A DNA stretch of 64,000 nucleotides from Devosia sp. (lineage in GTDB: Bacteria > Pseudomonadota > Alphaproteobacteria > Rhizobiales > Devosiaceae). The notes beneath the pieces are model-generated. The model saw nothing but the letters and a program-made list of their open reading frames with translations, was not told the DNA's origin and searched no databases. Below, piece by piece: positions 11,961 to 61,730 of this stretch (its first letter is position 1; each line of letters begins with the position of its first letter). The stretch lies in the NCBI RefSeq assembly GCF_040509215.1, contig NZ_JBEVLL010000324.1, forward strand, positions 5,857 through 69,856. Reading direction: 5' to 3'. The translations under genes and the position numbers were made by a program.

Positions 11961-13250
11961 TCAGCAGGGCGACGGGATGCGCACCAGCCCCCAGCCGAAG
12001 ATCGCATCCCGGCCGGGCTCACCGAGATCGAGGCTGGCCTCGATAAGTGCATCCATGGCGGCTGGCGGCTCGACACCCTTGGCCAGGGCTGCCGCCAGCG
12101 CCGTGGTGACGAAAGGTACGGCGAAGGACGTGCCGGTCTGGGGGCGGATGCCGGAGATCGAGGCGGCCGTGGAGATATCGACGCCGGGCGCGGCAAAACT
12201 CACATGTTCGCCCTGCACTGCCCGGCGATAGATGTTTTGCCGGCGGTCGACGGCAGTCACCGCGACGACATCGGGATATGCGGCGGGAAACATGGCTTCG
12301 GCCCGCGGCCCCGCATTGCCGACTGCCGCGACGACCGGGATGCCGGCAGTCTGGATTCGAGAGATGGCGTCGGCGAGAATGGCATTGTCGGGCCCGGCAA
12401 GGCTGAGGCTGGCAACATCGACCTGAGCCGTGGCCAGACGATCGAGTGCTTCGACCAAGGCGAATACATCGCTTCGCTCGTCCTGACCAACGCGGCCGAA
12501 GGGATCGACGACGAGCACCTCGGCAGCGGGCGCCAGGCCAGGGACCCGACCGCTGCCAACGAACATGGCGACGACGGCGGTGCCGTGTTTCAGCTCCGAC
12601 GGCTCCGCATCCACATTGCCGATCGTTTCGAGCGTCAGGCGCGCTTCGCTCAGCATCGGATGGTCGAGATTGACGCCTGTATCAATGACGCCGATATGAG
12701 GCGCGAAAACGCAGGTAGCGCCGACGGAAACCGGCGGCCAATCGACGGCCTCCCAATGTTCGCACATGGCGCCTTCGCATCCGATGGGAACCGCCTGGCT
12801 TCGATAGTAGGAATTGGGCGCGACGAGCGCTTCGGGCGAGGCTTTGCGCACGGCAGCCAGGGCTGCTTCGACATCGAGATCGTCGGGTAATTCCAGCAGC
12901 AGCCGGCCACTGCTTTCCGAGACGATCAGAAAACCCGCGGCGAGCAGGACGTCCCTGCCCGCAGCATCGAGGCTCGCGACCACCACTTGATCGTCGGCCT
13001 GTTCGGGCAATGGCACAGCGACCGGCGCAGGACGGCGGACGATCCGGCCGCCCATCCATGGTTCGTCGTCATCATCGTCATCGTCGCTCGAACCGGAGTC
13101 CCAATCGTCGTCATCGTCACCGCCATCATCGTCGTCATCGTCCTGCGCATAAGCCGGGGCAACGAGAAGGGGCGAGGCGAGGAGCCCGGGGACTGCAACG
13201 AGACCGAGCGCGACGAGCAAGGCGCGGAGCGAAGTGGTGGGGCTGGACAA
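11961..13250 (-). CDS. Secreted S8 family serine peptidase (subtilase) with poly-Asp N-terminal extension
   Basis: Catalytic triad contexts IGVIDTGVNLDHP (Asp), KHGTAVVAMF (His) and TGTSFAVPFV (Ser). The signal peptide ends APAYA, followed by QDDDDDDGGDDDDDWDSGSSDDDDDDDEPW. TTG start with AAGGAAG upstream. Confidence 0.9.
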   Translation of the reverse strand: MSSPTTSLRALLVALGLVAVPGLLASPLLVAPAYAQDDDDDDGGDDDDDWDSGSSDDDDDDDEPWMGGRIVRRPAPVAVPLPEQADDQVVVASLDAAGRDVLLAAGFLIVSESSGRLLLELPDDLDVEAALAAVRKASPEALVAPNSYYRSQAVPIGCEGAMCEHWEAVDWPPVSVGATCVFAPHIGVIDTGVNLDHPMLSEARLTLETIGNVDAEPSELKHGTAVVAMFVGSGRVPGLAPAAEVLVVDPFGRVGQDERSDVFALVEALDRLATAQVDVASLSLAGPDNAILADAISRIQTAGIPVVAAVGNAGPRAEAMFPAAYPDVVAVTAVDRRQNIYRRAVQGEHVSFAAPGVDISTAASISGIRPQTGTSFAVPFVTTALAAALAKGVEPPAAMDALIEASLDLGEPGRDAIFGWGLVRIPSPC

Positions 13251-13285
13251 TATGCGCTTCCTTCGACAATCGGTCTTGCAAGGCT

Positions 13286-13312
13286 AGACGTCTGAGACAT
13301 CAGAATATTCTA
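13286..13312 (-). promoter_or_regulatory. Candidate ECF-type promoter upstream of the S8 peptidase
   Basis: The minus strand reads TAGAATAT-N14-CGTCT, 35 nt before TTG 13250. Confidence 0.4.
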
Positions 13313-13339
13313 TGCAGCACACAAAAAAGCGACAGGCGC

Positions 13340-13367
13340 GGGAATAAACCCCATCACCCATCCGTCT
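13340..13367 (+). promoter_or_regulatory. Candidate autoregulatory ECF-type promoter upstream of the sigma factor
   Basis: GGGAATAA-N15-CGTCT ending 8 nt before ATG 13376. It lies back-to-back with the 13286..13312 site. Confidence 0.45.
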
Positions 13368-13375
13368 TCCAGCGT

Positions 13376-13876
13376 ATGAGCACCATAGCTTCCAGTCTCG
13401 TTCCCATGCTGCCACGCCTCCGGCGCTATGCGCTCGCCCTTTGCAAGGTGGGCGACATCGCAGACGATCTCGTGCAGACCGCCTGCGAAAAGGCGCTGGC
13501 CAGCCAGCGTCAAACGCTCGACCTCTCCTTTGACGCCTGGATGTTTCGCATCCTGCGCAATAGCTGGATCGACCGGCTGCGCCGCCAGAAGACGCGCGGC
13601 GAGGAGATCGACATCGTCGAGCACAGCGATATTGGCGCGTTCGATGGCTCCTCCATTCCGGAAAACCGCCTGGTGCTGAAAAAGACCATGGAGGCCATCG
13701 GCCGCCTGCCGCAGGACCAGCGCGAGTTGCTGCTGCTGGTGTGCGTGGAAGAGCTGAGCTATCGCGACGCGGCCGAGGTGCTCGACCTGCCTATCGGTAC
13801 AGTCATGAGCCGGCTTGCGCGGGCCCGTCGAAAACTCGCCGAGGATGTCGGCATAGAAGCGGGGCAATTGCTGTGA
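13376..13876 (+). CDS. ECF (sigma-70 family group IV) RNA polymerase sigma factor
   Basis: 166 aa with region 2 (DLVQTACEKAL...WMFRILRNSWIDRLRRQK) and region 4 (LPQDQRELLLLVCVEELSYRDAAEVLDLPIGTVMSRLARARRKL). The track ORF 13010..13876 is over-extended. Confidence 0.9.
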   Translation: MSTIASSLVPMLPRLRRYALALCKVGDIADDLVQTACEKALASQRQTLDLSFDAWMFRILRNSWIDRLRRQKTRGEEIDIVEHSDIGAFDGSSIPENRLVLKKTMEAIGRLPQDQRELLLLVCVEELSYRDAAEVLDLPIGTVMSRLARARRKLAEDVGIEAGQLL

Positions 13877-14604
13877 AGGACCAAAGCATGCAGCGCGATT
13901 TTTCCGACGAAACCCTCATGGCCTTCGCCGATGGCGTTCTGGATGAACCTCAGTTTTCGCAGGTCGCCGAAGCCATTGAAAGCGATGAGGCCCTGGCGAC
14001 GCGGCTCGAAACCCTTGTCACCGGCTCGACGCTTGCTCGACGTGGGTTTGACGAACTCCTTGCGCCGGTCTCGCCGGAGTTGGAGGCGGCCGTGCGGCAG
14101 ACGATCAAGGCGGCTGAGCGCAAGCCCTTCTGGAAATTCTCCTGGGGCAACTGGCTTTATCCTGCGGGCGCATTTGCTGCCGCAGCCGTGGCCGTCGTCG
14201 TCGCTATTCCGTCCCTGGGCCTGTGGCAGGCGTCTTCAGCGCCGTCATCCATGGCCGAGCTTGGTGGTGAGGAGGTTGCTGCTGTGCTCGACACCCTGCC
14301 CTCTGGCGGTACAACCACCTTGGCGAGCGGCACCGTCATCAATCCAATCGCCACCTTCACCAATGGCGACCAGCAGGTCTGCCGAGAGTTCGAGACCGAG
14401 GGCAGCGCCAGTTATCTCGTGGTTTCCTGTCGGGCTGGTTCGTCCTGGTCTGTTCAGCTTGCACTTGCGACCGCAAACGAAGATGGCAACTACCGGCCGG
14501 CGTCAGGTTTTGAAGTGTTGGACGCCTATCTGCAAACGGCTGGTGCAGGAGAACCGCTTGTCGGCGATGACGAGTTGGCGGTTCTTCGCAGCCCCTCACG
14601 CTGA
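13873..14604 (+). CDS. Anti-sigma factor (single-pass membrane protein with periplasmic domain)
   Basis: The GTG start overlaps the sigma stop (GTGA); the alternative is ATG 13888. It has an N-terminal anti-sigma-like helix region (FSDETLMAFADGVLDEP), one TM helix (AGAFAAAAVAVVVAIPSLGLW) and a ~130-aa C-terminal domain. Confidence 0.75.
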   Translation: MKDQSMQRDFSDETLMAFADGVLDEPQFSQVAEAIESDEALATRLETLVTGSTLARRGFDELLAPVSPELEAAVRQTIKAAERKPFWKFSWGNWLYPAGAFAAAAVAVVVAIPSLGLWQASSAPSSMAELGGEEVAAVLDTLPSGGTTTLASGTVINPIATFTNGDQQVCREFETEGSASYLVVSCRAGSSWSVQLALATANEDGNYRPASGFEVLDAYLQTAGAGEPLVGDDELAVLRSPSR

Positions 14605-14615
14605 CCGAGGACGTC

Positions 14616-14635
14616 GCGCCCTGCTGCTAGGGCGC
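14616..14635. terminator. Short stem-loop between convergent anti-sigma and GT4 genes
   Basis: GCGCCCT-gctgct-AGGGCGC overlapping the GT4 stop codon. No U-tract. Confidence 0.3.
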
Positions 14636-15706
14636 GATGCGGGTCCGATGGGCGACGCGCCCCAGGACCTCACCAACGGTCTTTTCGGTTTTGTCCCAAC
14701 TGTCGAGCTTTCGTCCGGCTTCGGTAGACAGCTCAGCCATGGTCTGTCTTGCGGCTTCATCGGTCAGGACCGAACGGAGGGCACTGGCAAAAGCGTCGAC
14801 ATCGTCCACCGGCACCAGAATGCCGGCCCCCGGCGCTACCGTGTCGGGCACTGCTCCCGTTCGGCATGTCACGATGGGGAGGCCATGCAGCATGGCTTCG
14901 CCGAGGACGATGCCATAGCCCTCGTAACGCGTGGCCAGAGCGAACAGCGTCGCCTGACGATAGCGCTCGATAACCTGGTCATCGGCGAGGAGGCCGGTGA
15001 GAGTCACACGATCGCCGAGGCCCAGTTCAGCGACTTGTCGGAGAAGCGCCTGCTCGACTGCTGGGTCGTGGGTCTTCCCGACAATCTGCGCCTGCCAGTC
15101 GAGATCGCCGATCTGACCGAGCGCAGCAACGAGAACATCGTGGCCCTTGCGCTCTGCCAGGAGACCCACCGACAGGATCAGCGGCGGCGACAAAGGCTTG
15201 TGGATGGGGTCGGCGGGGCGGAAGCCCGGAGGCGCAATGGTGACCTTTTGCTCGGGAACGTCGAACTGCTGCATCAAGATGCGGGCGGTGTGCGGGCTGG
15301 GGACCAGCACGGCGTCCGCCAGCTCTAGGTTGTCGGCCTCCCGTTGGAGCAGGAACCGGGATTGCGCGGGCGCCAACCCAGTTTCGAGGCCGAGGGGGTG
15401 ATGGATCATGGCGACAATGGGCGCCTTGATGGTTCGCAATCCGGCGGTGTCGATGGAGCCGAAGACGAGCCCGTCGATAATCAAAGGCATATCGGGCGGG
15501 AGGGCGGCCATGGCGGCGATTGCGGCGGCCGTTTCGTCGGCGCTGGGGTTCGGAAAGCCGGCACCCAGTTCGATGTGTTTTACCGCGCGGCCGTTCCGAC
15601 GCAGCGCCTGCAGCAGTTCATATTCGTAGATGTAGCCGCCGGTCTTTTGTGTGGCATCGCCGGGAATGGCAAAGGCGGCCGGGCGCTTTGGTGCTTGTTC
15701 GGTCAT
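14627..15706 (-). CDS. Glycosyltransferase family 4 (GT-B, RfaG-like)
   Basis: 359 aa from MTEQAPKRPAAF, with a GT4 C-terminal core (LFALATRYEGYGIVLGEAMLHGLPIVTCRTGAVPD). The ATG overlaps the upstream permease stop (ATGA). The track ORF 14627..16426 is over-extended. Confidence 0.85.
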   Translation of the reverse strand: MTEQAPKRPAAFAIPGDATQKTGGYIYEYELLQALRRNGRAVKHIELGAGFPNPSADETAAAIAAMAALPPDMPLIIDGLVFGSIDTAGLRTIKAPIVAMIHHPLGLETGLAPAQSRFLLQREADNLELADAVLVPSPHTARILMQQFDVPEQKVTIAPPGFRPADPIHKPLSPPLILSVGLLAERKGHDVLVAALGQIGDLDWQAQIVGKTHDPAVEQALLRQVAELGLGDRVTLTGLLADDQVIERYRQATLFALATRYEGYGIVLGEAMLHGLPIVTCRTGAVPDTVAPGAGILVPVDDVDAFASALRSVLTDEAARQTMAELSTEAGRKLDSWDKTEKTVGEVLGRVAHRTRIAP

Positions 15707-17277
15707 AGGGCGAGTTGCTCGCTGGCAAAGGTTTTGAGAATTCGGCGCTCCAGCCAATGGACCGCGGCATAGAGCAGGCTTGCCGCCAGCGCGAGGAGGA
15801 CGATGGCACTCCAGAGCATGGCGTAGTTCGAGGTCGAGGCGGTGAGGGCCATCAGGCTTCCGATGCCCGTGCCCGTCGCCAGCCATTCCGCAGTTGTTGC
15901 GGACAGAAAGGCGGCGGGCACCGCCATGCGCGCCGAAGCGAAGAAGGCCGGCAGCATGGCGGGAATCTGCGCGTGGATCAGCCTCTGCCACGGAGAGGTG
16001 GCATAGCTTGCAAAGAGATCGAGCACTGGTTGGGGTGTCCGCCGCATGCCTTCGAGACAAGCGGCGAGCGTTGGAAAGAAGATCATGACGGCAACGATCA
16101 CTATGGTTCCGACCGCCCCGCGACCGAGCGCCAGAACGAGGAGAGGCGCTGTCGTCACGATGGGCACGGAGCGCAGGGCAATGGCGATCGGCAACGTGCC
16201 TGCGGCAAGCCGGGGGCGGAGCACCAGCAAAATAGCAAGCCCGGCACCTAACCCGAGGCCAACGAGGTAGCCGGGCAAAGTCAGCGACAAAGTCTGCCAG
16301 AAAGCATCCGTGAGTACGGCGCGATTGGCTGAGGCTGGCGGGTCCGTGAAGAGGAAGGCAAAGACATCCTGCGGGCGTTTTGCGAAGAAGGGTGAAAGGT
16401 TGAGGACGTTCATCAGGCCGAGCCAAAGCGCCAGGATGATCACGGTGAGGAGCGCGAAGGTCCCGAGGCTACGCGCCAGGCTCGCGGCCTTTGATCGTGG
16501 CAGATCTTGTCGGCCGGGAGAGAGCAGCAGCGGCGGTGGACCGGCGCCGAGGCGGCGGCCGAGCCAGCCAAACAGCCAGAACGCCAGAGCCGAAATGGTG
16601 GCGGCCAGAGCGGCAATTGCCCAGGTCATATCCACATCGAGCCCGCGCATGGCGCGAATGCTGAGAACACCGAGGCCACGCTCGGCGCCGGTGAATTCGC
16701 CCACCATGGCGCCCAGAAATGCCGCAGGCGCGCCGATCTGCAGGCCCGCGGTAAAATACGGAAGAGATGCCATGGCGCGAACGTGCATGATTTCGCTCAC
16801 CCGTCCGCGACCATAGCTGCGCACGAGATCGAGCCAACTGGCGGGCATGGACCGAAGGCCGACCAGCAGGCAGAGATAGGTCGTGTAATATGTGGCAAGC
16901 GCTGCCAGGACGACCTGCGGGCCATCGCCGACGCCGTAGATGACGCGCAGGATCGGACCCGTAGCGACGAAGGGCAGGCAGAAGAACACCAGCGCTACGC
17001 CCGATACCAACCGCTCGATACGCGGCATGGCCAGCGCGATCGTTGCCAGCACGACGGCCGCAGCATTGCCGAGAACGAAGCCGATAGCGGCGGATTTCAG
17101 CGTTATGGCGGCCGATCCGACCAGCAATGGTGCCTCGGCGATTATGGCACGGAGGACTTCTGCCGGGCCGGCAAAGACGAACAGGCCCTGCGTGAGGCTC
17201 GCCAGTGTCTGCCACGCGGCCAACACGACAAGGGCGGTGAGAAAGGTCGGAACGGCTGCAGCGATACGATCCGTCAC
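15703..17277 (-). CDS. ABC transporter permease, fused double TauC/SsuC-type (NitT/TauT family)
   Basis: 524 aa with ~12 TM helices and two tandem binding-protein-dependent permease units. The GTG overlaps the ATPase stop (GTGA). Confidence 0.85.
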   Translation of the reverse strand: MTDRIAAAVPTFLTALVVLAAWQTLASLTQGLFVFAGPAEVLRAIIAEAPLLVGSAAITLKSAAIGFVLGNAAAVVLATIALAMPRIERLVSGVALVFFCLPFVATGPILRVIYGVGDGPQVVLAALATYYTTYLCLLVGLRSMPASWLDLVRSYGRGRVSEIMHVRAMASLPYFTAGLQIGAPAAFLGAMVGEFTGAERGLGVLSIRAMRGLDVDMTWAIAALAATISALAFWLFGWLGRRLGAGPPPLLLSPGRQDLPRSKAASLARSLGTFALLTVIILALWLGLMNVLNLSPFFAKRPQDVFAFLFTDPPASANRAVLTDAFWQTLSLTLPGYLVGLGLGAGLAILLVLRPRLAAGTLPIAIALRSVPIVTTAPLLVLALGRGAVGTIVIVAVMIFFPTLAACLEGMRRTPQPVLDLFASYATSPWQRLIHAQIPAMLPAFFASARMAVPAAFLSATTAEWLATGTGIGSLMALTASTSNYAMLWSAIVLLALAASLLYAAVHWLERRILKTFASEQLAL

Positions 17278-18047
17278 GACGTCGGCAATCCTTCACTGGC
17301 GGCCAAAGTGCTCGATATTTCCGCCATCGCGCCGCGTTTGGTGCTCTCGTTGCCGCGCATGCCGGTGAAATCACCGACGATCCGAGCCGGGCGTGGCGAG
17401 AAGACAATCACGCGGTCGCTGACATTGACGGCCTCGGAAATGGAATGGGTGACCAAAAGCGTGGTGGTGCCCGGCTTTTGCCAGAGCGCCGGCAAATCCT
17501 GGTTGAGGCGGGCGCGGGTCAGTTCGTCGACGGCGCCGAATGGCTCATCCAGCAAAAGCAGGCTCGGCTCGGTCACGAGACACCGGGCGATGGCAGCGCG
17601 CTGGCGCATGCCGCCCGACAGTTCGGCGGGTCTGGTATCGGCAAACTGGCTGAGCCCGACGAGATCGATGAGGTGGGAAACCCTGGCCTCGTCCTTGTCC
17701 CTGCGAGCCAGTTTCAGCGCGAGGGCGACGTTCTGGCGCACGGTAAGCCAGGGCAAGAGCGCGGCATCCTGAAAGGCGAAGGCGAGACCTGCTCTTTTCG
17801 TGACCTCGACCGGGGTTTCGCCACCGATCTGCACCGAGCCGGCCGTGGGTTTTTCGAGCCCGGCGATCAGGCGCAGAAGGGTTGACTTGCCGCAGCCGGA
17901 GGGCCCGACCAGGGCGGTCGTCTCTCCGGCATTGAAGCGAATATCGAGCGGGCCCACGGCGCTGATCGCCTTGCCGCCACTGTGGAAGGTCTTTTCAAGC
18001 TGCCTGCAGACTATTTCAGGCGATCGCGATGCCTCAGCCCTGGGCAT
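17274..18047 (-). CDS. ABC transporter ATP-binding protein (NitT/TauT family)
   Basis: Walker A GPSGCGKSTLL, signature LSGGMRQRAAIARCL, Walker B LLLLDEPFGAVD. Confidence 0.9.
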   Translation of the reverse strand: MPRAEASRSPEIVCRQLEKTFHSGGKAISAVGPLDIRFNAGETTALVGPSGCGKSTLLRLIAGLEKPTAGSVQIGGETPVEVTKRAGLAFAFQDAALLPWLTVRQNVALALKLARRDKDEARVSHLIDLVGLSQFADTRPAELSGGMRQRAAIARCLVTEPSLLLLDEPFGAVDELTRARLNQDLPALWQKPGTTTLLVTHSISEAVNVSDRVIVFSPRPARIVGDFTGMRGNESTKRGAMAEISSTLAASEGLPTS

Positions 18048-19032
18048 GCACTTCCTCGAGAATGGATCGGTCCCATAGATCGGCGGTGACGTTGCGGCCG
18101 AGGAGGCCGAGCGTTTCGACGTTCTGAGCGACGGTTTCGTCGGTGAACCAGCCGAAGCCGAATTCGTCGGTGAGCGCGGAGAACATCAGCGGGACCTGGC
18201 GCTCGGCCTGCAATTCCTGGGTCGGCAGGTCGAGGCCCTGATCGGGGTACATTTCGAGGGTCAGCGCCGCGGCGGCTTTCGGATCGGCCTTGTAGTCATC
18301 CCATCCGCGCACTTCGCCCCGCATGAGGGCGACAAGGTCGCTCCGGCGGTTGGCTATGCTGTCGTCGGTCGCGATATAGGTCTGCGAATGCACGGCATAG
18401 CCATGATCGGCCATCAGCATGGTGACGCTTTCGACGCCCTTGATCGCCATGGCCACGGGGAGATCGGTTTCCCAGCAGAGGAGGCAATCGACCTGATTGG
18501 CGATCAGCGGCGCCGCGTCATACTGTGTCGGCACGATCTCGATCTGAGTGATGTCGACATTGTTGATGGTGCAGAGCGCCTGCAGCACCGGGGTATTGGC
18601 CAGCGCCATGCCGATGCGCTTGCCGACAAGATCCGCTGGGGTGTTGACGGGATTGGCGGGAAGCGAAGCGATGACGAACGGGTTTTTCTGCATGGCAACG
18701 CCGATGATCTTGAACGGCGCGCCCTGCTCGACCGAAGCCGAGGCATAGTCGGCGGCCGAAATGCCGATCAGGGCTTGGCCCGTAACGACGGCCGGATCGA
18801 CGGGGGCATTGGGACCGCCGGGGTTCAGCGCCACATTGAGCCCCGCTTCGGACCAGTAGCCCTTGGACTTGGCAATGTAGCTGCCACCGAACTGCACCGA
18901 ATGCAGCCAACTCAGTTGCAGGGCGACGTCCTTGGTCTCCTGCGCAAAAAGACGCTGCGGCATGGCGGCCAGACCAATGGTTCCGAGGCCGGCATAGACG
19001 AACCGGCGGCGAGAAAGCTTGAGATGGGTCAC
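18034..19032 (-). CDS. ABC substrate-binding protein, NMT1/THI5 (SsuA/TauA)-like, Tat signal
   Basis: GTG 19032 is preceded by GGAG. The N-terminus THLKLSRRRFVYAGLGTIGLAAMPQRLFAQ is a twin-arginine signal. The track ORF 18034..19497 is over-extended. Confidence 0.8.
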   Translation of the reverse strand: MTHLKLSRRRFVYAGLGTIGLAAMPQRLFAQETKDVALQLSWLHSVQFGGSYIAKSKGYWSEAGLNVALNPGGPNAPVDPAVVTGQALIGISAADYASASVEQGAPFKIIGVAMQKNPFVIASLPANPVNTPADLVGKRIGMALANTPVLQALCTINNVDITQIEIVPTQYDAAPLIANQVDCLLCWETDLPVAMAIKGVESVTMLMADHGYAVHSQTYIATDDSIANRRSDLVALMRGEVRGWDDYKADPKAAAALTLEMYPDQGLDLPTQELQAERQVPLMFSALTDEFGFGWFTDETVAQNVETLGLLGRNVTADLWDRSILEEVHAQG

Positions 19033-19049
19033 GACGATCTCCAAGGTTT

Positions 19050-20000
19050 TCAAACGGGATTTGGACGGTGTCGAAGAAGAACGAAAAGCCCGGGCAGGCT
19101 TGCGGCAAGGATAACGAGGCCAAAGGCGAGGCTCGCCGCAAAGCCGGCCGCGGCGGTCGCGCCGGCTAGTGGGAACAGTGCGGCGGCAGCGCCCTCGCGA
19201 AAACCCCAACCGGCCACGGTTGTCGGGATGAGCATGGCGCAAAGGATCAGCGGCACGAGAACGAGAATGCCCTCGGCGGAGAGCGTGGTGCCCGTGGCGA
19301 GGGCGCAGAGGGTGAAACTCGACAGGTTCAACGCCACGATGACTACTGCAAGCGGCACTTGTTCGACCCAGGCGCCTTTGGCAAAAAGCGCCGTCACGAT
19401 CGACCGACCCAGATGATGGCGCCAATGCCGGCGCGCCAAGTGCGCCGCCAATAGGCAGAGGGCGACGACAGCGAGGAGCACCAGCACTCCCACCCAAAGC
19501 TCATGCGTCCCGATCGAAAACTCCAGTCCGCCCGGATTGAGCAACGCCCAGACGACTGCGATTGCCAGCAGGCTGAACATGGCGATCTGGCCAGCGAGGC
19601 GCTCGATGATCACGGCCTTGGCCGCAATGCCGAGCCCGGCCTGGTGGCGGGCTCGAACGGCTCGCGCTGCGTCACCCAGGACACCACCTGGAAGCGACTG
19701 ATTGACGAGTTGGGACAGGTAATATTCGGCCACGGCATGGCCCGGTGGAATGTCCTGACCAAGGCGGCAGGCTACGCGATGCCAGCGCCAAGCCGACGCT
19801 ATGGTCTGCAGGTTCACTGCGACGAAGGCCAGGAACAGATAGAGCCAATCGGCCTCGGCCAGAAGCGCCAAGGCGGCGGGCCCATCGGCAAGGTTCCACA
19901 AGAGCCCGATGATGACGACGGGCGGCAAAAGGCGAAGCAACAGCTTGAGGGGCGCCCTGCCCCGCTCGCGCTTTTCAAGCTTGAGCGCCGACGTGGTCAT
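19050..20000 (-). CDS. Flippase-like membrane protein (LPG-synthase TM domain / UPF0104 family)
   Basis: 316 aa from MTTSALKLEKRERG, polytopic, with an RWHRV-type motif (ASAWRWHRVACRLG). The ATG overlaps the upstream stop (ATGA). Confidence 0.75.
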   Translation of the reverse strand: MTTSALKLEKRERGRAPLKLLLRLLPPVVIIGLLWNLADGPAALALLAEADWLYLFLAFVAVNLQTIASAWRWHRVACRLGQDIPPGHAVAEYYLSQLVNQSLPGGVLGDAARAVRARHQAGLGIAAKAVIIERLAGQIAMFSLLAIAVVWALLNPGGLEFSIGTHELWVGVLVLLAVVALCLLAAHLARRHWRHHLGRSIVTALFAKGAWVEQVPLAVVIVALNLSSFTLCALATGTTLSAEGILVLVPLILCAMLIPTTVAGWGFREGAAAALFPLAGATAAAGFAASLAFGLVILAASLPGLFVLLRHRPNPV

Positions 20001-21622
20001 GGCTGTCCTCCGCTTGAGGATGAGGCGTCTATGAAGCGATCGCGAAACTCGCTCATGGGCCATATGGGAGCCGAAGCGTCGGGAATGAGCCCGTCGGTAA
20101 AGTCCCACTCGTCGAACAGCGAGAGGGCTGCCTCGGTACCAACGAGATGGACAGGCACGTCTTGCCCCTCGATCTGCGACACGCTCTGGGCCGGCGGATG
20201 GTCGCCAAGGATGACGAGCAGCCAATCGCGTCCGGCGTGGCGTGCGGCAAAGTCGAAGACGACTTCGAGGGAATAGTCGAGGGCCAGACGATACTGCTCG
20301 CGCATCAGGTCGCGGTTTGCCCATACGTCGGCACCCGGGGGACCGACATGCTGACTGGCGTTGAAGATCGAGCCGTCGGCCACGGCATCCCAATCGACGA
20401 CGCGCGGCACGGGTGTCCACGGCGCATGTGAAGAGAGCAGCGCGGTCATGGCGAAATCTGGCGTGCCGTCTTGCGGCAGGATGCGATCGACGGTGCTCAA
20501 GGTGTACTGGTCCGGCATCGTGGTCCAGTTGAACGCTTCGCCGTGATAATCGAGATCGGCAGCTTCATAGATGGCGTCGAACCCCATGAAGCGCGCTTCG
20601 GGCCAAGGCAGGGTGATGGCTGGCATGATGGTCGTGGTGCGGTAACCCGACGCCTGGGCCAGATGGTAGAGCGAGGGGCGAGAGCTTGCGAGCATCGCCC
20701 GGTATCGCGCCTGATTGTCTATCGAGAGGCCCGATGCCAGCGTCGCATGCGCCAACCAGCTCTGTCCGCCTGCAACGGGCGAGGTCAGCCAGGCCGAGCG
20801 CATGGCCAGTCCCGCGGCGGCCAGTTTGCTCTCGGCCGCTTCGAGACGCGCCAAATGGGTGGGGGCATAGAGGGGATTTCGATAGGCCGTCTGCCCATAG
20901 CTTTCGACGAAAATGACGAAAACATCGCGCCCCGCGAGACGATCGAAGAGGTTTTCACGCCCCGCAAAAGGATCTGTCTGCGCCTCGGTTTCGAAGGCGG
21001 CGAGATCGGCGTAGAGGGTGCGGAACGTCGTAGTTCGGTCGAAGGCGAGTTGGGTGGAAAAACTGCTGCCCGGCACGTCCACCGGCAAGGTCCAGGCCTG
21101 TCGTGCGGCGCCGACGTCGGCAATGACGAAGAACAGTGCCACCAGCCCGGCGGCCGCGGCGCCGATCCGCATGCCTTTGCTCGGCTCGTAGCGACTGATC
21201 AGGCCTGTGCTCCACCAGAGGATGCCCGCCAGGGCAAAGGGGATGAGGCCGATACCCACCGCCAAGGCGATCGCTAGCGGCCAGCCCACGGAGCCCCCAG
21301 CCAGCCGCAGTCCGGCTTCTGCCAATGGCAGGTCCATGAGCGGATTGAACGGGCGATTGAATGCGGTGAAGGTCGCGATATCGGCCAGTTTCAGGACCGA
21401 TACGCCGGTAAGAAGCAGGACAATTCCGGCCCGCACGGCATAGGTGATCGCGTTGCCGGCGGGTACCACGAGCAAAAGCCCCACGATGACGAACCATTCG
21501 AGGGGCAGTTGCAGGAGCATGCCCGGCGTCAGGGCATCGGGGTGGTTTGGCTGCGCCAAAACGGCATAGATCGCGAGGCCGGCGAAGAGGGGGCTGGTTA
21601 TGCCGGCCGGTTTTCGGGTCAA
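19997..21622 (-). CDS. Membrane-anchored alkaline-phosphatase-superfamily (sulfatase/LtaS-like) transferase
   Basis: N-terminal ~5 TM helices plus a C-terminal sulfatase-like domain (VFVIFVESYG..., LLSSHAPW, LVILGDHPP). The proposed TTG start at 21622 overlaps the upstream TGA (TTGA), but the start is uncertain. Confidence 0.7.
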   Translation of the reverse strand: MTRKPAGITSPLFAGLAIYAVLAQPNHPDALTPGMLLQLPLEWFVIVGLLLVVPAGNAITYAVRAGIVLLLTGVSVLKLADIATFTAFNRPFNPLMDLPLAEAGLRLAGGSVGWPLAIALAVGIGLIPFALAGILWWSTGLISRYEPSKGMRIGAAAAGLVALFFVIADVGAARQAWTLPVDVPGSSFSTQLAFDRTTTFRTLYADLAAFETEAQTDPFAGRENLFDRLAGRDVFVIFVESYGQTAYRNPLYAPTHLARLEAAESKLAAAGLAMRSAWLTSPVAGGQSWLAHATLASGLSIDNQARYRAMLASSRPSLYHLAQASGYRTTTIMPAITLPWPEARFMGFDAIYEAADLDYHGEAFNWTTMPDQYTLSTVDRILPQDGTPDFAMTALLSSHAPWTPVPRVVDWDAVADGSIFNASQHVGPPGADVWANRDLMREQYRLALDYSLEVVFDFAARHAGRDWLLVILGDHPPAQSVSQIEGQDVPVHLVGTEAALSLFDEWDFTDGLIPDASAPIWPMSEFRDRFIDASSSSGGQP

Positions 21623-22377
21623 GAGCGATGCCTTGCCAGCCAGATCACGTCGCGGCCGAAGGAATAGCCGAGCAGCAGCGTACCGATCGCGGCCAGGCTC
21701 CATGACAAAGGGCCACTGATGATGGGCGCGAGAAGCGCAATCAACACCGCTATTTGCACCACACAGATCGCCTTGCGGGTGAAGCGCTCCGGAAGCGGCG
21801 CCAGAAGCCTTGGCCACGCCAGCGCTGCCCCAAGGAACAGATAGCGCATGCTCCCAAGGGCCAGCACCCATGCTCCGGCCTTGCCTGACTGCCAGCAAAG
21901 CAGCGCGAGGAGCAGCGCAAAGACGGAGTCGATCTCCATATCGAAGCGGGCGCCAAAGTCCGAGGTCAGCCCCTGCCGGCGCGCAAAGTACCCGTCGACC
22001 CCATCAAGGCAGAGCGAGAAAATGGCAATGGCGAGAACGGACCATGCGAGTTGATCGCTTTGGGCCAGAAGTCCGGGCGCGGCCAACAGCGCGCAGAGCG
22101 CCGCGATGATCGCGGCTCTCGATAGCGTGACGATATTGGCAATGCCCAATCGATCATGCGGATAGTGGCGTCGCAGGGCTGCCCCGGCGAGACCAGCAAA
22201 AATGGCGAAGACCAGAGCCGCCGTGGTGGCACCGGCTACCGATTGCGTGAGGATATAGCCAAGCGCGAGGGCGGCCGGCGCAAGCAAAAGGCAAGCAATG
22301 ACGTATCGAGCGGCAACAGACAGACCGCGCCTGTCGAGGGTCGAGGGCAAGCGTCGCGCTGTTTCAGCTTCAATCAT
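21619..22377 (-). CDS. CDP-alcohol phosphatidyltransferase family protein
   Basis: Signature DGVDGYFARRQGLTSDFGARFDMEIDSVFALL fits DG-x2-AR-x8-G-x3-D-x3-D. Polytopic membrane protein. Confidence 0.85.
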   Translation of the reverse strand: MIEAETARRLPSTLDRRGLSVAARYVIACLLLAPAALALGYILTQSVAGATTAALVFAIFAGLAGAALRRHYPHDRLGIANIVTLSRAAIIAALCALLAAPGLLAQSDQLAWSVLAIAIFSLCLDGVDGYFARRQGLTSDFGARFDMEIDSVFALLLALLCWQSGKAGAWVLALGSMRYLFLGAALAWPRLLAPLPERFTRKAICVVQIAVLIALLAPIISGPLSWSLAAIGTLLLGYSFGRDVIWLARHRS

Positions 22378-22472
22378 GATTGCCCTTGCCAGAGCTGCTG
22401 CCGAACTACGACAATTATGTCATGTTACGGCATCTCTGTAAGAGTGGTTCACCGAAAGCACGGAAAAAGGCG

Positions 22473-23129: not shown

Positions 23130-24032
23130 ATGAGTGGAATGGTACGGGCGATCAAAGGGTCGCTCACGTTGAAGGTTTTCGCTGTCTGTTTTATCGCCGT
23201 ACACCTGCCGCTGATCGGACTTCTGTTTTATCTCGGACTCGGCCATCCCTCTGATCCGATTGCAACTTTGCTTGTGGCCCTGCTTTCCACGGTGCTCGGC
23301 TGCGCCCTGTCCTATATGGCCGTGCATCGCTTCGTCAGCCCTATCGACCGGCTGATTCAGGCCGTGGACCGGTACCAGAGCGAGGGCAAGGAACCGGACC
23401 TCGAGCTCAAGGGCTCGGACGGGATAAGCCGGCTCGCCCACAAGCTTGTGTCGCTGATACGCGCGCAGGAACTCAGGCTCAAAACGCTGAAGCGGCAGGC
23501 CAATAGTGATGCACTCACCGGGCTTGGCAACCGGCGTTGGCTTCAGAACGCGGTGTCTCTCGAGCTGAACCGGGCGACGAGAAGCGATCAATGGGTGTGG
23601 GTGATTGCCTTCGACCTCGATCACTTCAAGCAGGTGAATGATACGCATGGTCACGCCGCGGGCGATGAAGTGCTGATGCTCGTGGCCGAGATAGCGCAAA
23701 GCCAGCTCCGCCCTTACGATCTGATCGCGCGAATTGGCGGCGAGGAGTTTTGCGTGGTGAGCGCCGATAGCAGCCCCTCATTCGGCTTCATCGCCGCAGA
23801 GCGCATCCGCGCTGCTCTGGAAGCCCACAAGCCAAGCCTTGGCGGGCACCCCACGACGATCACTGCGAGCTTTGGCGTGCACAAGGGAGACCCCCACAAG
23901 GAGGGCTTTGCCGAAATGCTGAGGCTGGCGGACGCGGGTCTCTACGGCGCGAAAGCAAAGGGACGAAATCTCGTCGTAGGCAGCAACGACACCTCTGCTG
24001 CGTCGGAGACTTTCCTGAAAGAGAGGACCTGA
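23130..24032 (+). CDS. Membrane-anchored diguanylate cyclase (GGDEF)
   Basis: Two N-terminal TM helices, then DALTGLGNRR and the active site RIGGEEF. Confidence 0.85.
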   Translation: MSGMVRAIKGSLTLKVFAVCFIAVHLPLIGLLFYLGLGHPSDPIATLLVALLSTVLGCALSYMAVHRFVSPIDRLIQAVDRYQSEGKEPDLELKGSDGISRLAHKLVSLIRAQELRLKTLKRQANSDALTGLGNRRWLQNAVSLELNRATRSDQWVWVIAFDLDHFKQVNDTHGHAAGDEVLMLVAEIAQSQLRPYDLIARIGGEEFCVVSADSSPSFGFIAAERIRAALEAHKPSLGGHPTTITASFGVHKGDPHKEGFAEMLRLADAGLYGAKAKGRNLVVGSNDTSAASETFLKERT

Positions 24033-58444: not shown

Positions 58445-58552
58445 GGTCGCGCCATTCCACAGGGGTGCTCCGTAGAGTCGGGGCTGAGATGGAGGCAGCA
58501 AGCCTTCGGACCCTACAGCTGATCTGGGTAATACCAGCGGAGCGAGGCGGGC
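58445..58552 (+). promoter_or_regulatory. TPP (THI-box) riboswitch
   Basis: Conserved cores cAGGGGTGCtc...GCTGAGAt...ACCCtacaGCTGATCTGGGTAATACCAGCGgAGcGAGG. The 3' end overlaps the SD (GAGG) of ykoF. Confidence 0.85.
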
Positions 58553-58553
58553 T

Positions 58554-59162
58554 ATGTTTTCTGGCGCACAGATTTCCCTTTATCCGATGGCTGACGATTT
58601 CGTCGGCATCATCATGAACGCTCTTTCCGCGCTCGATCCCTATCGTGATCGCCTGCGGATCGAGACGGACGATATTTCGACACTCCTGGTCGGACCGCCG
58701 GAAGTCTTGTTCCCGGCAATGCGCGACCTCTTCAGCGCAGCCGCGCGAACGGGTGTCCATTGTACCCTTTCGGCGGCAATTTCGCGCGGTTGCCCCGGCG
58801 AACCAGATGAGGCCATCTGCCAGTCCGGACATTTAGCCGGTCCAATGGCCTCCCTTGCCGAACGACAGAAGACTGCGCTGGCGGCGGTTGCGGATGCACC
58901 GACGATGGGCGTGTTCTCGGTCGCCCAGTTCTCGCTCTACGTCATGGGGCAAGGGAACCATATGGACGAGATCTATGGCTGCATCGACTTCCTGAAGAGC
59001 TCGGGCACCTTCGAGACGTCCAAACATTTCTGCACCAAGCTCAATGGCGATACCGGCGCCCTGTTCGCAACGCTGGAACAAGCCTTTTGCGGCTTTGGCC
59101 CACCCGAAGGGCACGTCACGATCGATCTCACGGTTTCGGCCAACAGCCCCAGCACACGCTAA
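58554..59162 (+). CDS. ykoF: YkoF-like thiamine/HMP-binding protein
   Basis: Tandem ACT-like halves beginning MFSGAQISLYPMADDF and VAQFSLYVMGQGNHMDE. Confidence 0.8.
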   Translation: MFSGAQISLYPMADDFVGIIMNALSALDPYRDRLRIETDDISTLLVGPPEVLFPAMRDLFSAAARTGVHCTLSAAISRGCPGEPDEAICQSGHLAGPMASLAERQKTALAAVADAPTMGVFSVAQFSLYVMGQGNHMDEIYGCIDFLKSSGTFETSKHFCTKLNGDTGALFATLEQAFCGFGPPEGHVTIDLTVSANSPSTR

Positions 59163-59173
59163 GCGCGGAAGCC

Positions 59174-59974
59174 ATGATGTCGATTGCATACGCACCATTG
59201 CGCGCTTTCGCGCGCCTTTCGCTCCATGCCGGTCCGGCCGTGTTGTCGGTCGCCACACTTTTCCTGGGCTGGGAAGCCTATGTGCACTTCTCGGACATCT
59301 CGCCGACAACATTGCCGGCGCCTTCCCGAATTCTGCTTCAGGCCTATGAGCAGCGGGAGGCGCTTGCGAGCCATAGCCTCGCGACACTCCAGGCCACGAC
59401 TTTCGGGTTCACTTGCTCGCTGATTGCCGCGTTCCTGTTCTCGCTTCTGGTGGACTTCTTTCCGCTACTGCGACGCGCCCTGTTTCCAGTCTTCATCATC
59501 ACCCAAACCCTGCCATTGGTCGCCATCGCTCCGCTGATCGTGCTGTGGTTCGGCTTTGGGCTCACGCCCAAGATCGTCTTGGTCGCCCTGGTGACGTTCT
59601 TTCCCATGCTGGTGGCACTGGTGCAGGGATACGCGGCCACTGACCGCGATTTGGAGGCGCTGCTCGCCTCAATGGGCGCCTCGCGGTGGCGCATCTTCGC
59701 CATGGCGCGGCTACCATCGGCCCTGCCCTATTTTTTCGCTGGGCTCCGGATCTCCATCACCTATGCGGTCGTCGGGGCGATCTTCTCCGAATATGCCGGC
59801 GCGGCCAGGGGACTTGGGATCTACATCCTCAACGCCAAGAACAATTTTCGCCCAGACCTTGTGCTGGCGGCGGTCTTTGTCAGCGCCACGCTGACCCTCG
59901 TGCTTTTCGGCGCCACCGTCTTGCTCCAGCGCGCCGCCATGCCATGGGCCCGGCTCGGGGAGAAGAACCCATGA
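59174..59974 (+). CDS. thiX: ABC permease ThiX (NitT/TauT family; pyrimidine-precursor uptake)
   Basis: Six-TM permease within the riboswitch-controlled operon. Confidence 0.8.
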   Translation: MMSIAYAPLRAFARLSLHAGPAVLSVATLFLGWEAYVHFSDISPTTLPAPSRILLQAYEQREALASHSLATLQATTFGFTCSLIAAFLFSLLVDFFPLLRRALFPVFIITQTLPLVAIAPLIVLWFGFGLTPKIVLVALVTFFPMLVALVQGYAATDRDLEALLASMGASRWRIFAMARLPSALPYFFAGLRISITYAVVGAIFSEYAGAARGLGIYILNAKNNFRPDLVLAAVFVSATLTLVLFGATVLLQRAAMPWARLGEKNP

Positions 59975-60720
59975 CCGCGCCCGGCCTGGAAATGCGGGGT
60001 GTGAGCAAGGCCTTTGATGGCCGAAGCGTGCTGGATCGGATCAGCCTCGTCGTACGGCCGGCCGAGTTCGTTTCCATCGTGGGACCGTCAGGGGCCGGAA
60101 AATCCACCATTCTCAATCTTCTGACGGGGGCTTTGGCTCCCGATGGCGGTGAGATCTTGTTCGACGGAATTCACCTCACACCCAGCCGTCAGCGCTTCGC
60201 GTTCATGCCGCAGCGCGATGCGCTGATGCCCTGGCGTCGCGTCATCGACAATACGACGCTTGGTCTCGAGGTGGCAGGAATGGCCCGAAGCGCCGCACGC
60301 GCCAAAGTCCGGCCCTTGCTTGCCGAGTTCGGACTCGATGGCTTCGAACGCCACTACCCAGCGCAATTGTCCGGCGGAATGCGCCAACGCGCCGCGCTCC
60401 TGCGGACCGTGGTGCAGGGCAAGCCCGTGCTGCTGCTCGACGAACCGTTCGGCGCCCTTGATGCACTCACCCGAACCCGAATGCAGCGCTGGCTGGCCGA
60501 GATGTGGACCCGTCATCGCTGGACAGTGCTCCTCATCACCCATGATGTGCGGGAGGCCGCGCTGCTCTCCGACCGAGTCTATGTGCTTTCCGCCCGGCCG
60601 GCTCGCATCGACCGCGTGATCGAGGTGCCACTGCCTCATCCCCGACCACCGGCTGGCTCGGCCACCCTAGCCGCCATCGAGTCCGAAATCCTGCAAACGC
60701 TCTTCAACAGCGAGGTTTAG
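59971..60720 (+). CDS. thiZ: ABC ATP-binding protein ThiZ
   Basis: GPSGAGKSTILNLL, LSGGMRQRAALLRTV, LLLLDEPFGALD. The ATG overlaps the upstream stop. Confidence 0.85.
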   Translation: MTAPGLEMRGVSKAFDGRSVLDRISLVVRPAEFVSIVGPSGAGKSTILNLLTGALAPDGGEILFDGIHLTPSRQRFAFMPQRDALMPWRRVIDNTTLGLEVAGMARSAARAKVRPLLAEFGLDGFERHYPAQLSGGMRQRAALLRTVVQGKPVLLLDEPFGALDALTRTRMQRWLAEMWTRHRWTVLLITHDVREAALLSDRVYVLSARPARIDRVIEVPLPHPRPPAGSATLAAIESEILQTLFNSEV

Positions 60721-60722
60721 TC

Positions 60723-61730
60723 ATGCCGCTCTTTCGCAGTGCCGCCGCCCTACTCATTGCCGGCTTGGCCACAACTGGCCCTGTCATGGCGGAATCCGTT
60801 CCGGTGACCGTGGCGCTCGACTGGACGCCCAATACCAATCACATCGGTCTCTACGTGGCCGAGGCGAAGGGCTTTTACGAAGACGCGGGCCTCGATGTGC
60901 AAATCCTGCCCTATTCGGACACATCGGCTTCAACCCTCGTCGCCAACCGCGTGGCCGATTTCGGCGTCATCGGGTCCATTGGCCTCTTCATCCAACGCGC
61001 CGCTGGCGCCGATCTGGTTGCGACCTACGCGCTCGTTCAGACCGAAACAGGGCGCCTGGTGTTCAACGGCGACCGTCAGGATATCCAAAGCCCCAAAGAC
61101 CTCGATGGCAAGACCTATGCAGGCTTCGGTGGCGCCTGGGAGGACGTCCTGCTGGGCACGATGATCCGCAACGATGGCGGCAAAGGCGAATATGAAACAG
61201 TCACCCTGGGCACTTCGGCCTACGAGGCGCTCTACAATGGTGCTGTAGATTTCACGCTCGAGGTTTACACCTGGGAGGGCGCGAAGGCAGAGCGCGATGG
61301 TCGCAAACAAGGCGCGTTTCGCTATGCAGATTTCGGCGTGCCGGATCAGCACACCAACTTCATAGGAACCAGCGGAGCCTATCTCGCAGAACATCCCGAC
61401 AGGGCGAAGGCCTTCATCGGCGCCACGCAAGAGGGATATGCCTACGCGGTCGACAACCCGGACGAGGCCGCCGACATTCTCGTCGCGGCGAATCCCGATG
61501 CTGCCCTCGACCGTGATTTTGTCCGTGCATCACTCCAGGCTCTTATCGACGGCCACTATCTCAAAGCGGAAACTGGCGAGGTCGGAGTTATCAATCCGGC
61601 CAAAATGGACGCCGTGGGCAATTTCATTTTCCAGTCGGGCATCCTGAGGGATGGCGAGGGCAAGCCGCTGACGGATGCCCCTGATGTGTCGGCCTATTAT
61701 TCCAACGATTACCTCAATACTCGGCCTTGA
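60723..61730 (+). CDS. thiY: NMT1/THI5-like substrate-binding protein ThiY
   Basis: Signal peptide MPLFRSAAALLIAGLATTGPVMA, then VALDWTPNTNHIGLYVA, typical of THI5/ThiY. Confidence 0.85.
   Translation: MPLFRSAAALLIAGLATTGPVMAESVPVTVALDWTPNTNHIGLYVAEAKGFYEDAGLDVQILPYSDTSASTLVANRVADFGVIGSIGLFIQRAAGADLVATYALVQTETGRLVFNGDRQDIQSPKDLDGKTYAGFGGAWEDVLLGTMIRNDGGKGEYETVTLGTSAYEALYNGAVDFTLEVYTWEGAKAERDGRKQGAFRYADFGVPDQHTNFIGTSGAYLAEHPDRAKAFIGATQEGYAYAVDNPDEAADILVAANPDAALDRDFVRASLQALIDGHYLKAETGEVGVINPAKMDAVGNFIFQSGILRDGEGKPLTDAPDVSAYYSNDYLNTRP

Follow-up and report, generated by a model that had tools for sequence, protein, structure and literature searches.

The subject of this study is a seven-gene operon on the minus strand of a 64,000-nucleotide stretch of Devosia sp. 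DNA (contig NZ_JBEVLL010000324.1), the whole of which we call the window. The operon spans window positions 14627-22377 and combines genes for phospholipid head-group chemistry with an importer and a glycosyltransferase. Its first gene, g1 (21619-22377; 252 amino acids (aa), ATG start), encodes a CDP-alcohol phosphatidyltransferase family protein. It is followed by g2 (19997-21622; 541 aa, TTG start), a polytopic alkaline-phosphatase (AP)-superfamily protein and putative phospho-head-group transferase, and by g3 (19050-20000; 316 aa, ATG start), a membrane protein of family PF03706, also called UPF0104, MprF flippase-type or 'PplT'. An ATP-binding cassette (ABC) importer comes next, consisting of a substrate-binding protein (SBP) of the NMT1/THI5 type with a twin-arginine translocation (Tat) signal (g4, 18034-19032; 332 aa, GTG start), a NitT/TauT-type ATPase (g5, 17274-18047; 257 aa, ATG start) and a fused double permease with two BPD_transp_1 units (g6, 15703-17277; 524 aa, GTG start). 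The last gene, g7 (14627-15706; 359 aa, ATG start), encodes a cytoplasmic family 4 glycosyltransferase (GT4). Each reading frame is intact and in frame with a single stop. Four junctions are 4-nt overlaps (TTGA between g1 and g2, ATGA between g2 and g3, GTGA between g5 and g6, ATGA between g6 and g7), while g4 and g5 overlap by 14 nt and g3 and g4 are separated by a 17-nt gap. The seven minus-strand reading frames and their junctions are exactly those of a sequence-only reading of the DNA that preceded our analysis and took the seven genes for one unit, and every domain family that it named was reproduced by Pfam.

Domains were called with Pfam, with scores in bits compared to the family cut-off, and substrate-level names were sought among NCBIfam equivalog models with their curated cut-offs. 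None of the seven proteins reached an equivalog cut-off, and neither sequence searches of the Protein Data Bank (PDB) nor the literature yielded a characterised pathway matching the cluster, as the sequence-only reading had anticipated. The sole relevant paper is an expression study of Dinoroseobacter shibae (PMC4373377). Comparison within the genus gave 81% identity between g2 and a protein of Devosia sp. SL43, and 98% between g4 and one of Devosia riboflavina.

In a scan of one genome per species, a g2 relative was encoded in at least 579 genomes, and the best 80 of these loci were analysed with up to 10 kb on each side. The orthologues of g1, g2 and g3 were adjacent in nearly all 80 loci, with g3 directly after g2 in most related loci, and about 25-36 of the 80 carried the same seven-gene block in the same order. 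The complete block was found in Devosia enhydra, Mesorhizobium and many Paracoccaceae, including Marivita, Ruegeria, Tateyamaria, Thioclava and others. Independent gene calls for CP051232.1 gave the same block with the same order and the same 4-nt overlaps. The block also lies on the 72-kb chromid pDSHI05 of D. shibae and on replicons of Paracoccus, Salipiger, Alloyangia and Tateyamaria. Across orders, the SBP was the most conserved component (70-79% identity), compared to 45-55% for the enzymes. The sequence-only reading had held that a fortuitous insertion of the ABC genes would show as a loss of synteny with the lipid genes in relatives; the two sets are syntenic across Hyphomicrobiales and Rhodobacterales. 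The Devosia cluster represents one form of a modular system that is widespread in alphaproteobacteria, occurs in some gammaproteobacteria and has hitherto been uncharacterised.

The modularity concerns the genes that adjoin the core of g1, g2 and g3. This core was accompanied by one of three mutually exclusive modules: the NMT1 importer with the GT4, a GTP-derived block with the GT4, or a CUT1 importer without a GT4. The flanks reached 9 kb or more on each side in 46 loci; of these, 25 had the NMT1 importer, 14 the GTP-derived block, none had both and seven had neither. The exclusivity of importer and block is significant (Fisher's exact test, 5e-7), where the count covers about 10 kb around the core and the statistic ignores kinship. 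In loci without the NMT1 importer, the GT4 gene was followed by genes for an IMPase-family phosphatase, whose start overlaps the GT4 stop, an FkbM-family methyltransferase, GTP cyclohydrolase II (GCH-II), an MDR-type dehydrogenase, a PTPS-like protein, a second methyltransferase and a RibD_C protein that is pyrimidine-reductase-like. GCH-II passed two NCBIfam cut-offs (NF001591, 244 versus 148 bits; TIGR00505, 207 versus 205.9 bits). The GTP-derived arrangement also occurs in Halieaceae gammaproteobacteria, and both module types were found within the single genera Marivita, Ruegeria and Sulfitobacter. Two Marivita loci (L049 and L050) are colinear except that one has the SBP, ATPase and permease genes where the other has the IMPase gene.

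Five loci, namely four of the seven with neither module and L025, lack the GT4 and instead carry an orthologous CUT1 sugar-type importer composed of an SBP_bac_1 protein, two permeases and a MalK/UgpC-type ATPase, in four arrangements relative to the core. The CUT1 importers at L002 12558-16928, L006 11610-15803, L025 11344-13670 and L057 2133-4465 have SBPs that are 63-86% identical, and these loci contain no GT4 or NMT1 importer. One PDB neighbour of the CUT1 importer is 5ysb, which binds beta-1,2-gluco-oligosaccharides. The GT4 travels with the NMT1 importer or the GTP-derived block and is absent where the sugar-type importer is present.

Two further genes near related clusters concern the same enzyme families. 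In three Rhodobacterales loci (L037, L059 and L073), an FkbM-family methyltransferase gene, transcribed in the same direction, separates the g1 orthologue from that of g2, and this methyltransferase is therefore a pathway component in some lineages. An Inositol_P gene 5 kb from the ABC-type cluster of CP051232.1 was considered as the cluster phosphatase and rejected, as it encodes a 26%-identical paralogue.

The importer genes bear on what may be supplied to the core. The SBP g4 belongs to the NMT1 family (PF09084, 136.5 versus 20.5 bits) and has an SRRRF twin-arginine motif, read from the translation. The ATPase g5 matches ABC_tran (PF00005, 127 bits), with nitrate, sulfonate and SaoA-type ATPases as its best NCBIfam matches, all below cut-off. 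Two BPD_transp_1 stretches and about 12-13 hydrophobic segments were found in g6, and this fused architecture is common to all orthologous loci and to the closest paralogous transporter. An NMT1 SBP with an export signal, a BPD_transp_1 permease and an ABC ATPase are encoded together in conserved order, which identifies a NitT/TauT-type importer. That paralogous transporter, the closest that we found, is on a Roseinatronobacter plasmid; it has an SBP 33% identical to g4 and the same 524-aa fused permease, and follows a gene of the 5-formyltetrahydrofolate (5-formyl-THF) cyclo-ligase family. The context of a further, more remote homologue of the SBP, on R. johnstonii pRL9, was uninformative.

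By sequence, the only PDB relatives of g4 were 4nmy, ThiY (3ix1) and Thi5. An AlphaFold model of g4 (pLDDT 76.5) was compared to the PDB with Foldseek. Its nearest neighbour was thiamin-bound 4nmy (3.5e-18), followed by ThiY bound to the formylaminopyrimidine FAMP (3ix1; TM 0.70/0.76), with Thi5 next in rank. The sulfonate binders TauA and SsuA ranked lower (1e-14 to 1e-12), as did PqqT. The riboflavin importer RibXY is of the same COG0715/COG0600 transporter family (PMC4418817). Because the SBP fold is nearest to thiamin and pyrimidine binders and the importer swaps with the GTP-derived block, the head-group alcohol is probably a glycoside of a GTP-derived N-heterocycle and not a sulfonate. 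On the simplest reading, some species make the aglycone and the source Devosia imports and glycosylates it, while the few CUT1-type species may take it up ready-made as the glycoside. Another possible role for the CUT1 importer is in glucan turnover.

In the proposal of the sequence-only reading, the imported compound is either a small polar alcohol or a sulfonate, which is then attached to CDP-diacylglycerol, and glycosylation comes as a separate last step. On this view, g1 would directly attach a compound of, for example, the taurine, isethionate or dihydroxypropanesulfonate (DHPS) type. The NMT1/NitT-TauT family does include TauA and SsuA, both are detectable as structural neighbours of the SBP, and the best NCBIfam matches of g5 and g6 include sulfonate and SaoP/SaoA-type components, although all lie far below cut-off. 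However, relatives replace the importer by a pathway of GCH-II, pyrimidine reductase and PTPS-like protein rather than by sulfonate biosynthesis, and the SBP model ranks thiamin- and pyrimidine-binding proteins first. The GT4 also co-varies with the supply module, which argues that glycosylation is probably not an add-on at the end. We therefore consider the sulfonate proposal improbable.

Thiamin-pyrimidine import by g4-g6 was examined as a candidate function and rejected. The window has a separate operon at 58451-61730 (plus strand) that begins with its only thiamin pyrophosphate (TPP) riboswitch (RF00059, 58451-58563, plus strand; 60.1 bits versus a gathering threshold of 54.3) and continues with a YkoF-like gene, a BPD_transp_1 permease, an ABC ATPase and a second NMT1 SBP (60723-61730). 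This ykoF-thiX-thiZ-thiY operon is the canonical thiamin-pyrimidine salvage transporter. Since a separate riboswitch-controlled transporter is present and g4 is only remotely similar to its ThiY-like SBP, with a match over a 40-aa stretch, g4 is not the thiamin-pyrimidine importer. The cluster resembles ThiXYZ and RibXY in belonging to the same NitT/TauT family (COG0715 and COG0600) and in having structural neighbours that bind thiamin or FAMP. It differs in that identity is about 20%, that the cluster has no TPP or FMN riboswitch and that its permease is a fused double unit.

The same operon bears on whether the ABC importer belongs to the system at all. Many related loci lack it, and the lipid genes might work without an importer that was inserted fortuitously or serves an unrelated nutrient role such as thiamin-pyrimidine salvage. 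Yet the importer occupies the same position between g3 and the GT4, with overlapping stops and starts, in Devosiaceae, Mesorhizobium, Paracoccus, Dinoroseobacter, Marivita, Ruegeria and others. It has moved together with the GT4 in two loci (L033 and L063), is strictly complementary to the de novo block among the 46 loci, and coexists in the window with a dedicated salvage operon. We find it hardly credible that the importer is a fortuitous or functionally unrelated neighbour.

The glycosyltransferase g7 meets the description of a GT-B/GT4 enzyme by three Pfam matches (PF00534, 102.8 bits; PF13692, 99.2 bits; PF13439, 34.5 bits), and no transmembrane (TM) segment was found in it. Its best PDB sequence match was 6kih (2e-21), presumably a cyanobacterial sucrose-phosphate synthase, followed by MshA (1e-13) and then PimB', BshA and PimA. 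Enzymes of this kind glycosylate small phosphorylated acceptors or inositol lipids. An inositol-lipid pathway akin to those of phosphatidylinositol (PI), its mannosides (PIM) or glycosylphosphatidylinositol (GPI) would fit the matches to MshA, PimB' and PimA: g1 would be a PI or PIP synthase, the GT4 would be PimA/PIG-A-like and g2 PIG-N-like, and inositol would be imported or, in relatives, made by the IMPase. The phosphatase of relatives is indeed closest to inositol-1-monophosphatase (200 bits), and g1 weakly matches PIP synthase. But both scores fall far short of the equivalog cut-offs (200 versus 332 bits, and 25.9 versus 170 bits), the IMPase gene is embedded in the GCH-II/RibD_C/PTPS block and not beside an inositol-phosphate synthase gene, and the SBP is not of a sugar- or polyol-binding type. 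We therefore rejected a PI/PIM/GPI-like pathway as the principal explanation and regard it as highly improbable.

The first enzyme of the core, g1, matches CDP-OH_P_transf (PF01066, 60.6 versus 22 bits). Its motif D125-G-x-D128-G129-x2-A132-R133-x8-G142-x3-D146-x3-D150 is invariant in 12 orthologues. Besides PIP synthase, it fell below the NCBIfam cut-offs of pgsA (35.3 versus 109.1 bits) and pssA (22.3 versus 107 bits), and it had no match to Pcs. A g1 profile matched PDB entries weakly, namely CHPT1/CEPT1 (1e-6), PssA (4e-5) and PgsA (0.02). In the Pcs route, imported choline and CDP-diacylglycerol give phosphatidylcholine, which then serves as a phosphocholine donor for envelope molecules. 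An overview is given in PMC10434233. The likeness to the Devosia cluster is that an imported alcohol would be fixed on CDP-diacylglycerol by an enzyme of the CDP-alcohol transferase family, with a head group that can be moved later to molecules of the periplasm or the surface. The differences are that g1 reaches no Pcs model, that the SBP is of the NMT1/ThiY type and not choline-binding, and that the GT4 and the flippase-like protein are extra.

The second enzyme, g2, has a weak match to Sulfatase (PF00884, 33.6 versus 25 bits) after an N-terminal transmembrane block. Hydropathy and the distribution of K and R predict four or five N-terminal hydrophobic or TM segments, with a K/R-rich loop before the last, and a C-terminal domain outside the cytoplasm. 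PDB sequence searches with the single sequence and with the family profile gave no match. An AlphaFold model (pLDDT 84.7) had Foldseek matches to PbgA/YejM (2e-8), full-length MCR-1 (1e-7), LtaP (2e-7) and EptC (1.5e-6), and further to LtaS, GacH, EptA and BcsG. This gives g2 a membrane-anchored AP architecture, in which a TM bundle precedes a predicted extracytoplasmic AP-fold domain. Seven residues do not vary in the family alignment: E240 (FVESYG), T280, S288 (GGQSWLAH), H399, D474, H475 and H492. The model places them at the ends of strands or, as with S288, at the start of a helix, and the set is the pattern that would be expected of a metal-dependent phosphotransferase.

The g2 family comprises 581 representatives (50% identity clusters) at E<=1e-30. 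Among the top 150 representatives, 21 are 700-850 aa long, and seven of ten tested carry an N-terminal CDP-OH_P_transf domain. One such fusion is WP_130403582.1 from Thalassococcus sp. S3, where the cluster reads EEP - fusion - PF03706 - GT4 - IMPase - FkbM - dehydrogenase - PTPS - methyltransferase - RibD_C. Nothing else argues as strongly as these natural fusions for a shared pathway of g1 and g2.

The third core protein, g3, is a clear member of LPG_synthase_TM (PF03706, 106.6 versus 33.4 bits), with a match over residues 27-300 of 316 and thus over its full length; a PDB sequence search gave no match. PF03706 is the flippase part of MprF and has been proposed as a general phospholipid translocator (bioRxiv 10.1101/2022.03.11.483950). 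As in MprF, a dedicated lipid would be made at the inner leaflet and moved by a PF03706 domain. Here, however, a CDP-alcohol phosphatidyltransferase takes the place of the tRNA-dependent aminoacyl transferase as synthase, g3 is not fused to it, and there is an additional periplasmic transferase. A second parallel is ybhP-clsB-ybhN of Escherichia coli. An EEP-family gene is often the first in the operon of roseobacters, and its product is homologous to YbhP (27% identity, E = 2e-10). Relatives of the cluster therefore share with ybhP-clsB-ybhN a logic of EEP protein, phosphatidyl transferase and PF03706 protein. The E. coli operon differs in having a PLD-type transferase and no AP-type transferase, importer or GT4, while the source window has no EEP gene. 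The pairwise similarity of g3 and YbhN was not significant, though both are PF03706 proteins.

Upstream of g1 and divergent from it lies a gene for a cytochrome b561 of the CybB/YceJ type (plus strand; open reading frame (ORF) from 22380, probable ATG start at 22473, end at 23006; PF01292, 109.6 bits). This gene was the divergent neighbour of the g1 orthologue in 56-57 of the 80 loci. The intergenic region of about 95 bp (22378-22472) contains a promoter-like site for the operon, CTTACA-17-CATAAT (minus strand, 22442-22414), about 36 nt upstream of the g1 start. Related loci have a CTTGAC -35 box, 30-60 nt upstream of the start of the g1 orthologue in most. In many of them, the CTTGAC box is paired with a CTA-type -10 element that precedes the CDP-alcohol transferase gene's ATG by no more than about 10-20 nt, a short spacing that suggests very short or leaderless 5' ends. 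Only this housekeeping-like box was found upstream of g1 in relatives, and a sigma-E (RpoE-ChrR)-type motif TGATCC-N-CGTA was not. No Rfam riboswitch was found in the cluster or in the region upstream of g1.

Several observations were made on the surroundings of the operon. A gene for a GGDEF diguanylate cyclase lies directly downstream of the cytochrome b561 gene (23130-24032, plus strand). At the other end (13010-14604, plus strand), an extracytoplasmic function (ECF)-type sigma factor gene (Sigma70_r2/r4, with a weak PhyR_sigma2 match) converges on the operon's 3' end, as does the 287-aa ORF behind it, which has no Pfam match. In Thalassococcus sp. S3 (CP022303.1, L091 4002-4583), a YceI-family gene takes the divergent position held elsewhere by cytochrome b561; yceI and the b561 homologue yceJ are neighbours in E. 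coli. A 173-aa gene upstream of the gammaproteobacterial cluster was considered for the same role and is not a cytochrome b561. Just past the cytochrome b561 gene of CP051232.1 (L083 4839-5762, 2826-4745) is a TAXI-TRAP-type transporter with an NMT1_3 SBP and a DctM fusion, which is probably unrelated.

Beyond the cytochrome gene, the cluster is linked to the periplasmic glucan genes opgG and opgH. These were linked to the core in 27 of the 46 loci with full flanks, in several architectures, and in many Paracoccaceae and some other alphaproteobacteria they follow the cytochrome b561 gene. The opgH product scored 455 bits on NCBIfam MdoH (cut-off 328) and the opgG product 494 bits on Pfam MdoG. 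The arrangements include cytochrome b561-opgH-opgG, cytochrome b561-opgG-opgH and, in L039, opgG directly after the GT4. In the two loci where importer and GT4 have moved together, the SBP-ATPase-permease-GT4 block sits downstream of opgG on the other strand, and in L034, L052, L067 and L075 the GT4 alone sits downstream of opgG. Because the linkage recurs in several arrangements, periplasmic glucans are the best candidate for the acceptor of a transferred head group.

This link recalls OpgB and OpgE, which move phosphoglycerol and phosphoethanolamine from phospholipids to periplasmic glucans (PMC3818809). With these enzymes and with LtaS, EptA, MCR-1, BcsG and GacH, g2 shares a TM bundle and a periplasmic AP-fold domain, as the model matches indicate; with OpgB and OpgE it also shares the linkage of its cluster to opgG/opgH in many relatives. 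Two differences stand out. By sequence, g2 does not belong to the characterised OpgB/LtaS/EptA-type subfamilies. And whereas known AP-type transferases draw on bulk phosphatidylethanolamine or phosphatidylglycerol, g2 is co-encoded, or fused, with its own phospholipid synthase and co-encoded with a flippase-like protein and a supply module.

A different end point has to be considered here. The end product could be the phospho(glyco)lipid itself, as a specialised lipid of the outer leaflet, with g2 decorating it or another envelope molecule with phosphoethanolamine or phosphoglycerol from bulk phospholipids in the manner of EptA, OpgE or PIG-N. The fold of g2 matches enzymes that use bulk phosphatidylethanolamine or phosphatidylglycerol as donor. 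The E. coli operon ybhP-clsB-ybhN follows the same logic without an AP-type transferase, and so a route of this kind can end in a lipid. Moreover, the window has no opg genes. On the other hand, the g1/g2 fusions in several lineages argue that g2 acts on or with the g1 product, though they do not fix the direction of transfer, and the recurrent opgGH linkage in different architectures fits a soluble periplasmic acceptor. We consider it rather unlikely that the lipid is the end of the pathway.

The only expression data bearing on the system come from D. shibae. On pDSHI05, the orthologues run from Dshi_4162 (GT4) to Dshi_4168 (g1), followed by Dshi_4169 (cytochrome b561), Dshi_4170 (mdoH) and Dshi_4171 (opgG), a mapping derived from the gene order of the chromid and the text of PMC4373377. 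Soora et al. 2015 (PMC4373377) compared starvation in light/dark with starvation in the dark: Dshi_4166-4170 were upregulated in light/dark, by 1.6-2.2 log2 in the case of Dshi_4167-4170. According to the same study, the region Dshi_4160-4171 (or to Dshi_4172) had earlier been assigned to the singlet-oxygen response, and curing of the chromid abolishes the benefit that D. shibae draws from light during starvation (PMC4373377). These data are expression and replicon-level evidence, not evidence of gene-level function. [quoted passage not shown] The sequence-only reading was right that the seven genes form one unit, but it had overlooked the cytochrome b561 gene, the opgGH link and this published induction by light and singlet oxygen.

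What the analysis establishes is how the genes are built, which domain families and folds they encode, that they are conserved, that modules are exchanged and genes fused, and that light induces the orthologues in D. shibae. On this basis we favour, tentatively, the reading that the operon and the divergent cytochrome b561 gene make a dedicated 'donor' phospholipid that is used in the periplasm. The Tat-exported SBP and the fused-permease ABC importer would take up an N-heterocyclic alcohol, probably pyrimidine-, pteridine- or ribityl-type, of the kind that relatives make from GTP. The cytoplasmic GT4 would glycosylate it, before or after its attachment to the lipid. At the level of family membership, g1 would join the compound to diacylglycerol via a phosphodiester, with CDP-diacylglycerol as the presumed donor, and g3 would move the lipid to the outer leaflet. 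The LtaS/EptA-like g2 would then transfer the phospho-head group to an envelope acceptor, for which the periplasmic glucans are put forward. Such a system would resemble the OpgB/OpgE/EptA/LtaS family combined with the synthase-flippase logic of MprF. In outline, this is the order of supply, attachment, flipping and transfer that the sequence-only reading had proposed, and it is supported by the g1/g2 fusions, the fold matches of g2 and the exchange of the importer for a de novo block. What probably changes in that proposal is its substrate class and the place of glycosylation, and the system extends beyond the seven genes.

A number of points weigh against the donor-lipid reading. We infer each chemical step, the ligand and the acceptor, and the lack of an observed lipid, ligand or acceptor counts against it. 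The best PDB matches of the g1 profile are choline/ethanolamine phosphotransferases, so g1 may instead join a CDP-alcohol to diacylglycerol, although the cluster contains no cytidylyltransferase gene. For g2, the best structural match, PbgA/YejM, is to our knowledge not a transferase. Its nucleophile is uncertain (T280 or S288), with no significant residue-level alignment to a solved enzyme, and comparison of family profiles with hhalign was not significant for OpgB (E = 0.13) or OpgE (E = 0.42), nor was there an NCBIfam match. The enzyme might draw on bulk phospholipids instead. On the supply side, g4 is only about 18-21% identical to ThiY and 4nmy, and the GTP-derived block could lie elsewhere in importer-type genomes, as the exclusivity count spans only about 10 kb around the core. 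The PTPS-like protein has HGA where HGH is usual, and the product of the GTP-derived block is only a candidate. Finally, none of the opgG, opgH, EEP, IMPase and FkbM genes is present in the window. The linkage to opg genes is for the most part limited to Paracoccaceae and may in part be inherited synteny.

A more specific form of the donor-lipid reading starts from the light response. The head group would be a redox- or photo-active GTP-derived compound of the pteridine, lumazine or flavin kind, which some species would make with the GTP-derived block and the source Devosia would scavenge with its NMT1 importer. The lipid-carrier route would tether it through a phosphodiester to periplasmic glucans or the outer leaflet, and cytochrome b561 would keep it reduced from the quinone pool. 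It would act as a periplasmic antioxidant or photoprotectant and would therefore explain the induction by light and singlet oxygen in D. shibae. We consider this version speculative and decidedly unlikely as it stands.

Known envelope phospho-head-group transferases (OpgB, OpgE, EptA/MCR, LtaS and BcsG) use bulk phospholipids, whereas the system described here appears to make its own donor lipid and to have its own flippase-like protein. If the donor-lipid reading is true, it would add to the known bacterial phospholipids a new one whose head group is probably a glycosylated N-heterocycle, and periplasmic glucans or other molecules of the envelope would bear a decoration that is likewise new. 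If a tethered pteridine- or flavin-like head group proved true, it would represent a new lipid class and a new way to install a cofactor-like molecule outside the cytoplasm. The donor-lipid reading would also assign a role to a large branch of the alkaline-phosphatase superfamily that is so far an orphan. This branch counts 581 clusters (50% identity) and is found in at least 579 species genomes, among them those of the model organisms Dinoroseobacter shibae and Paracoccus denitrificans.

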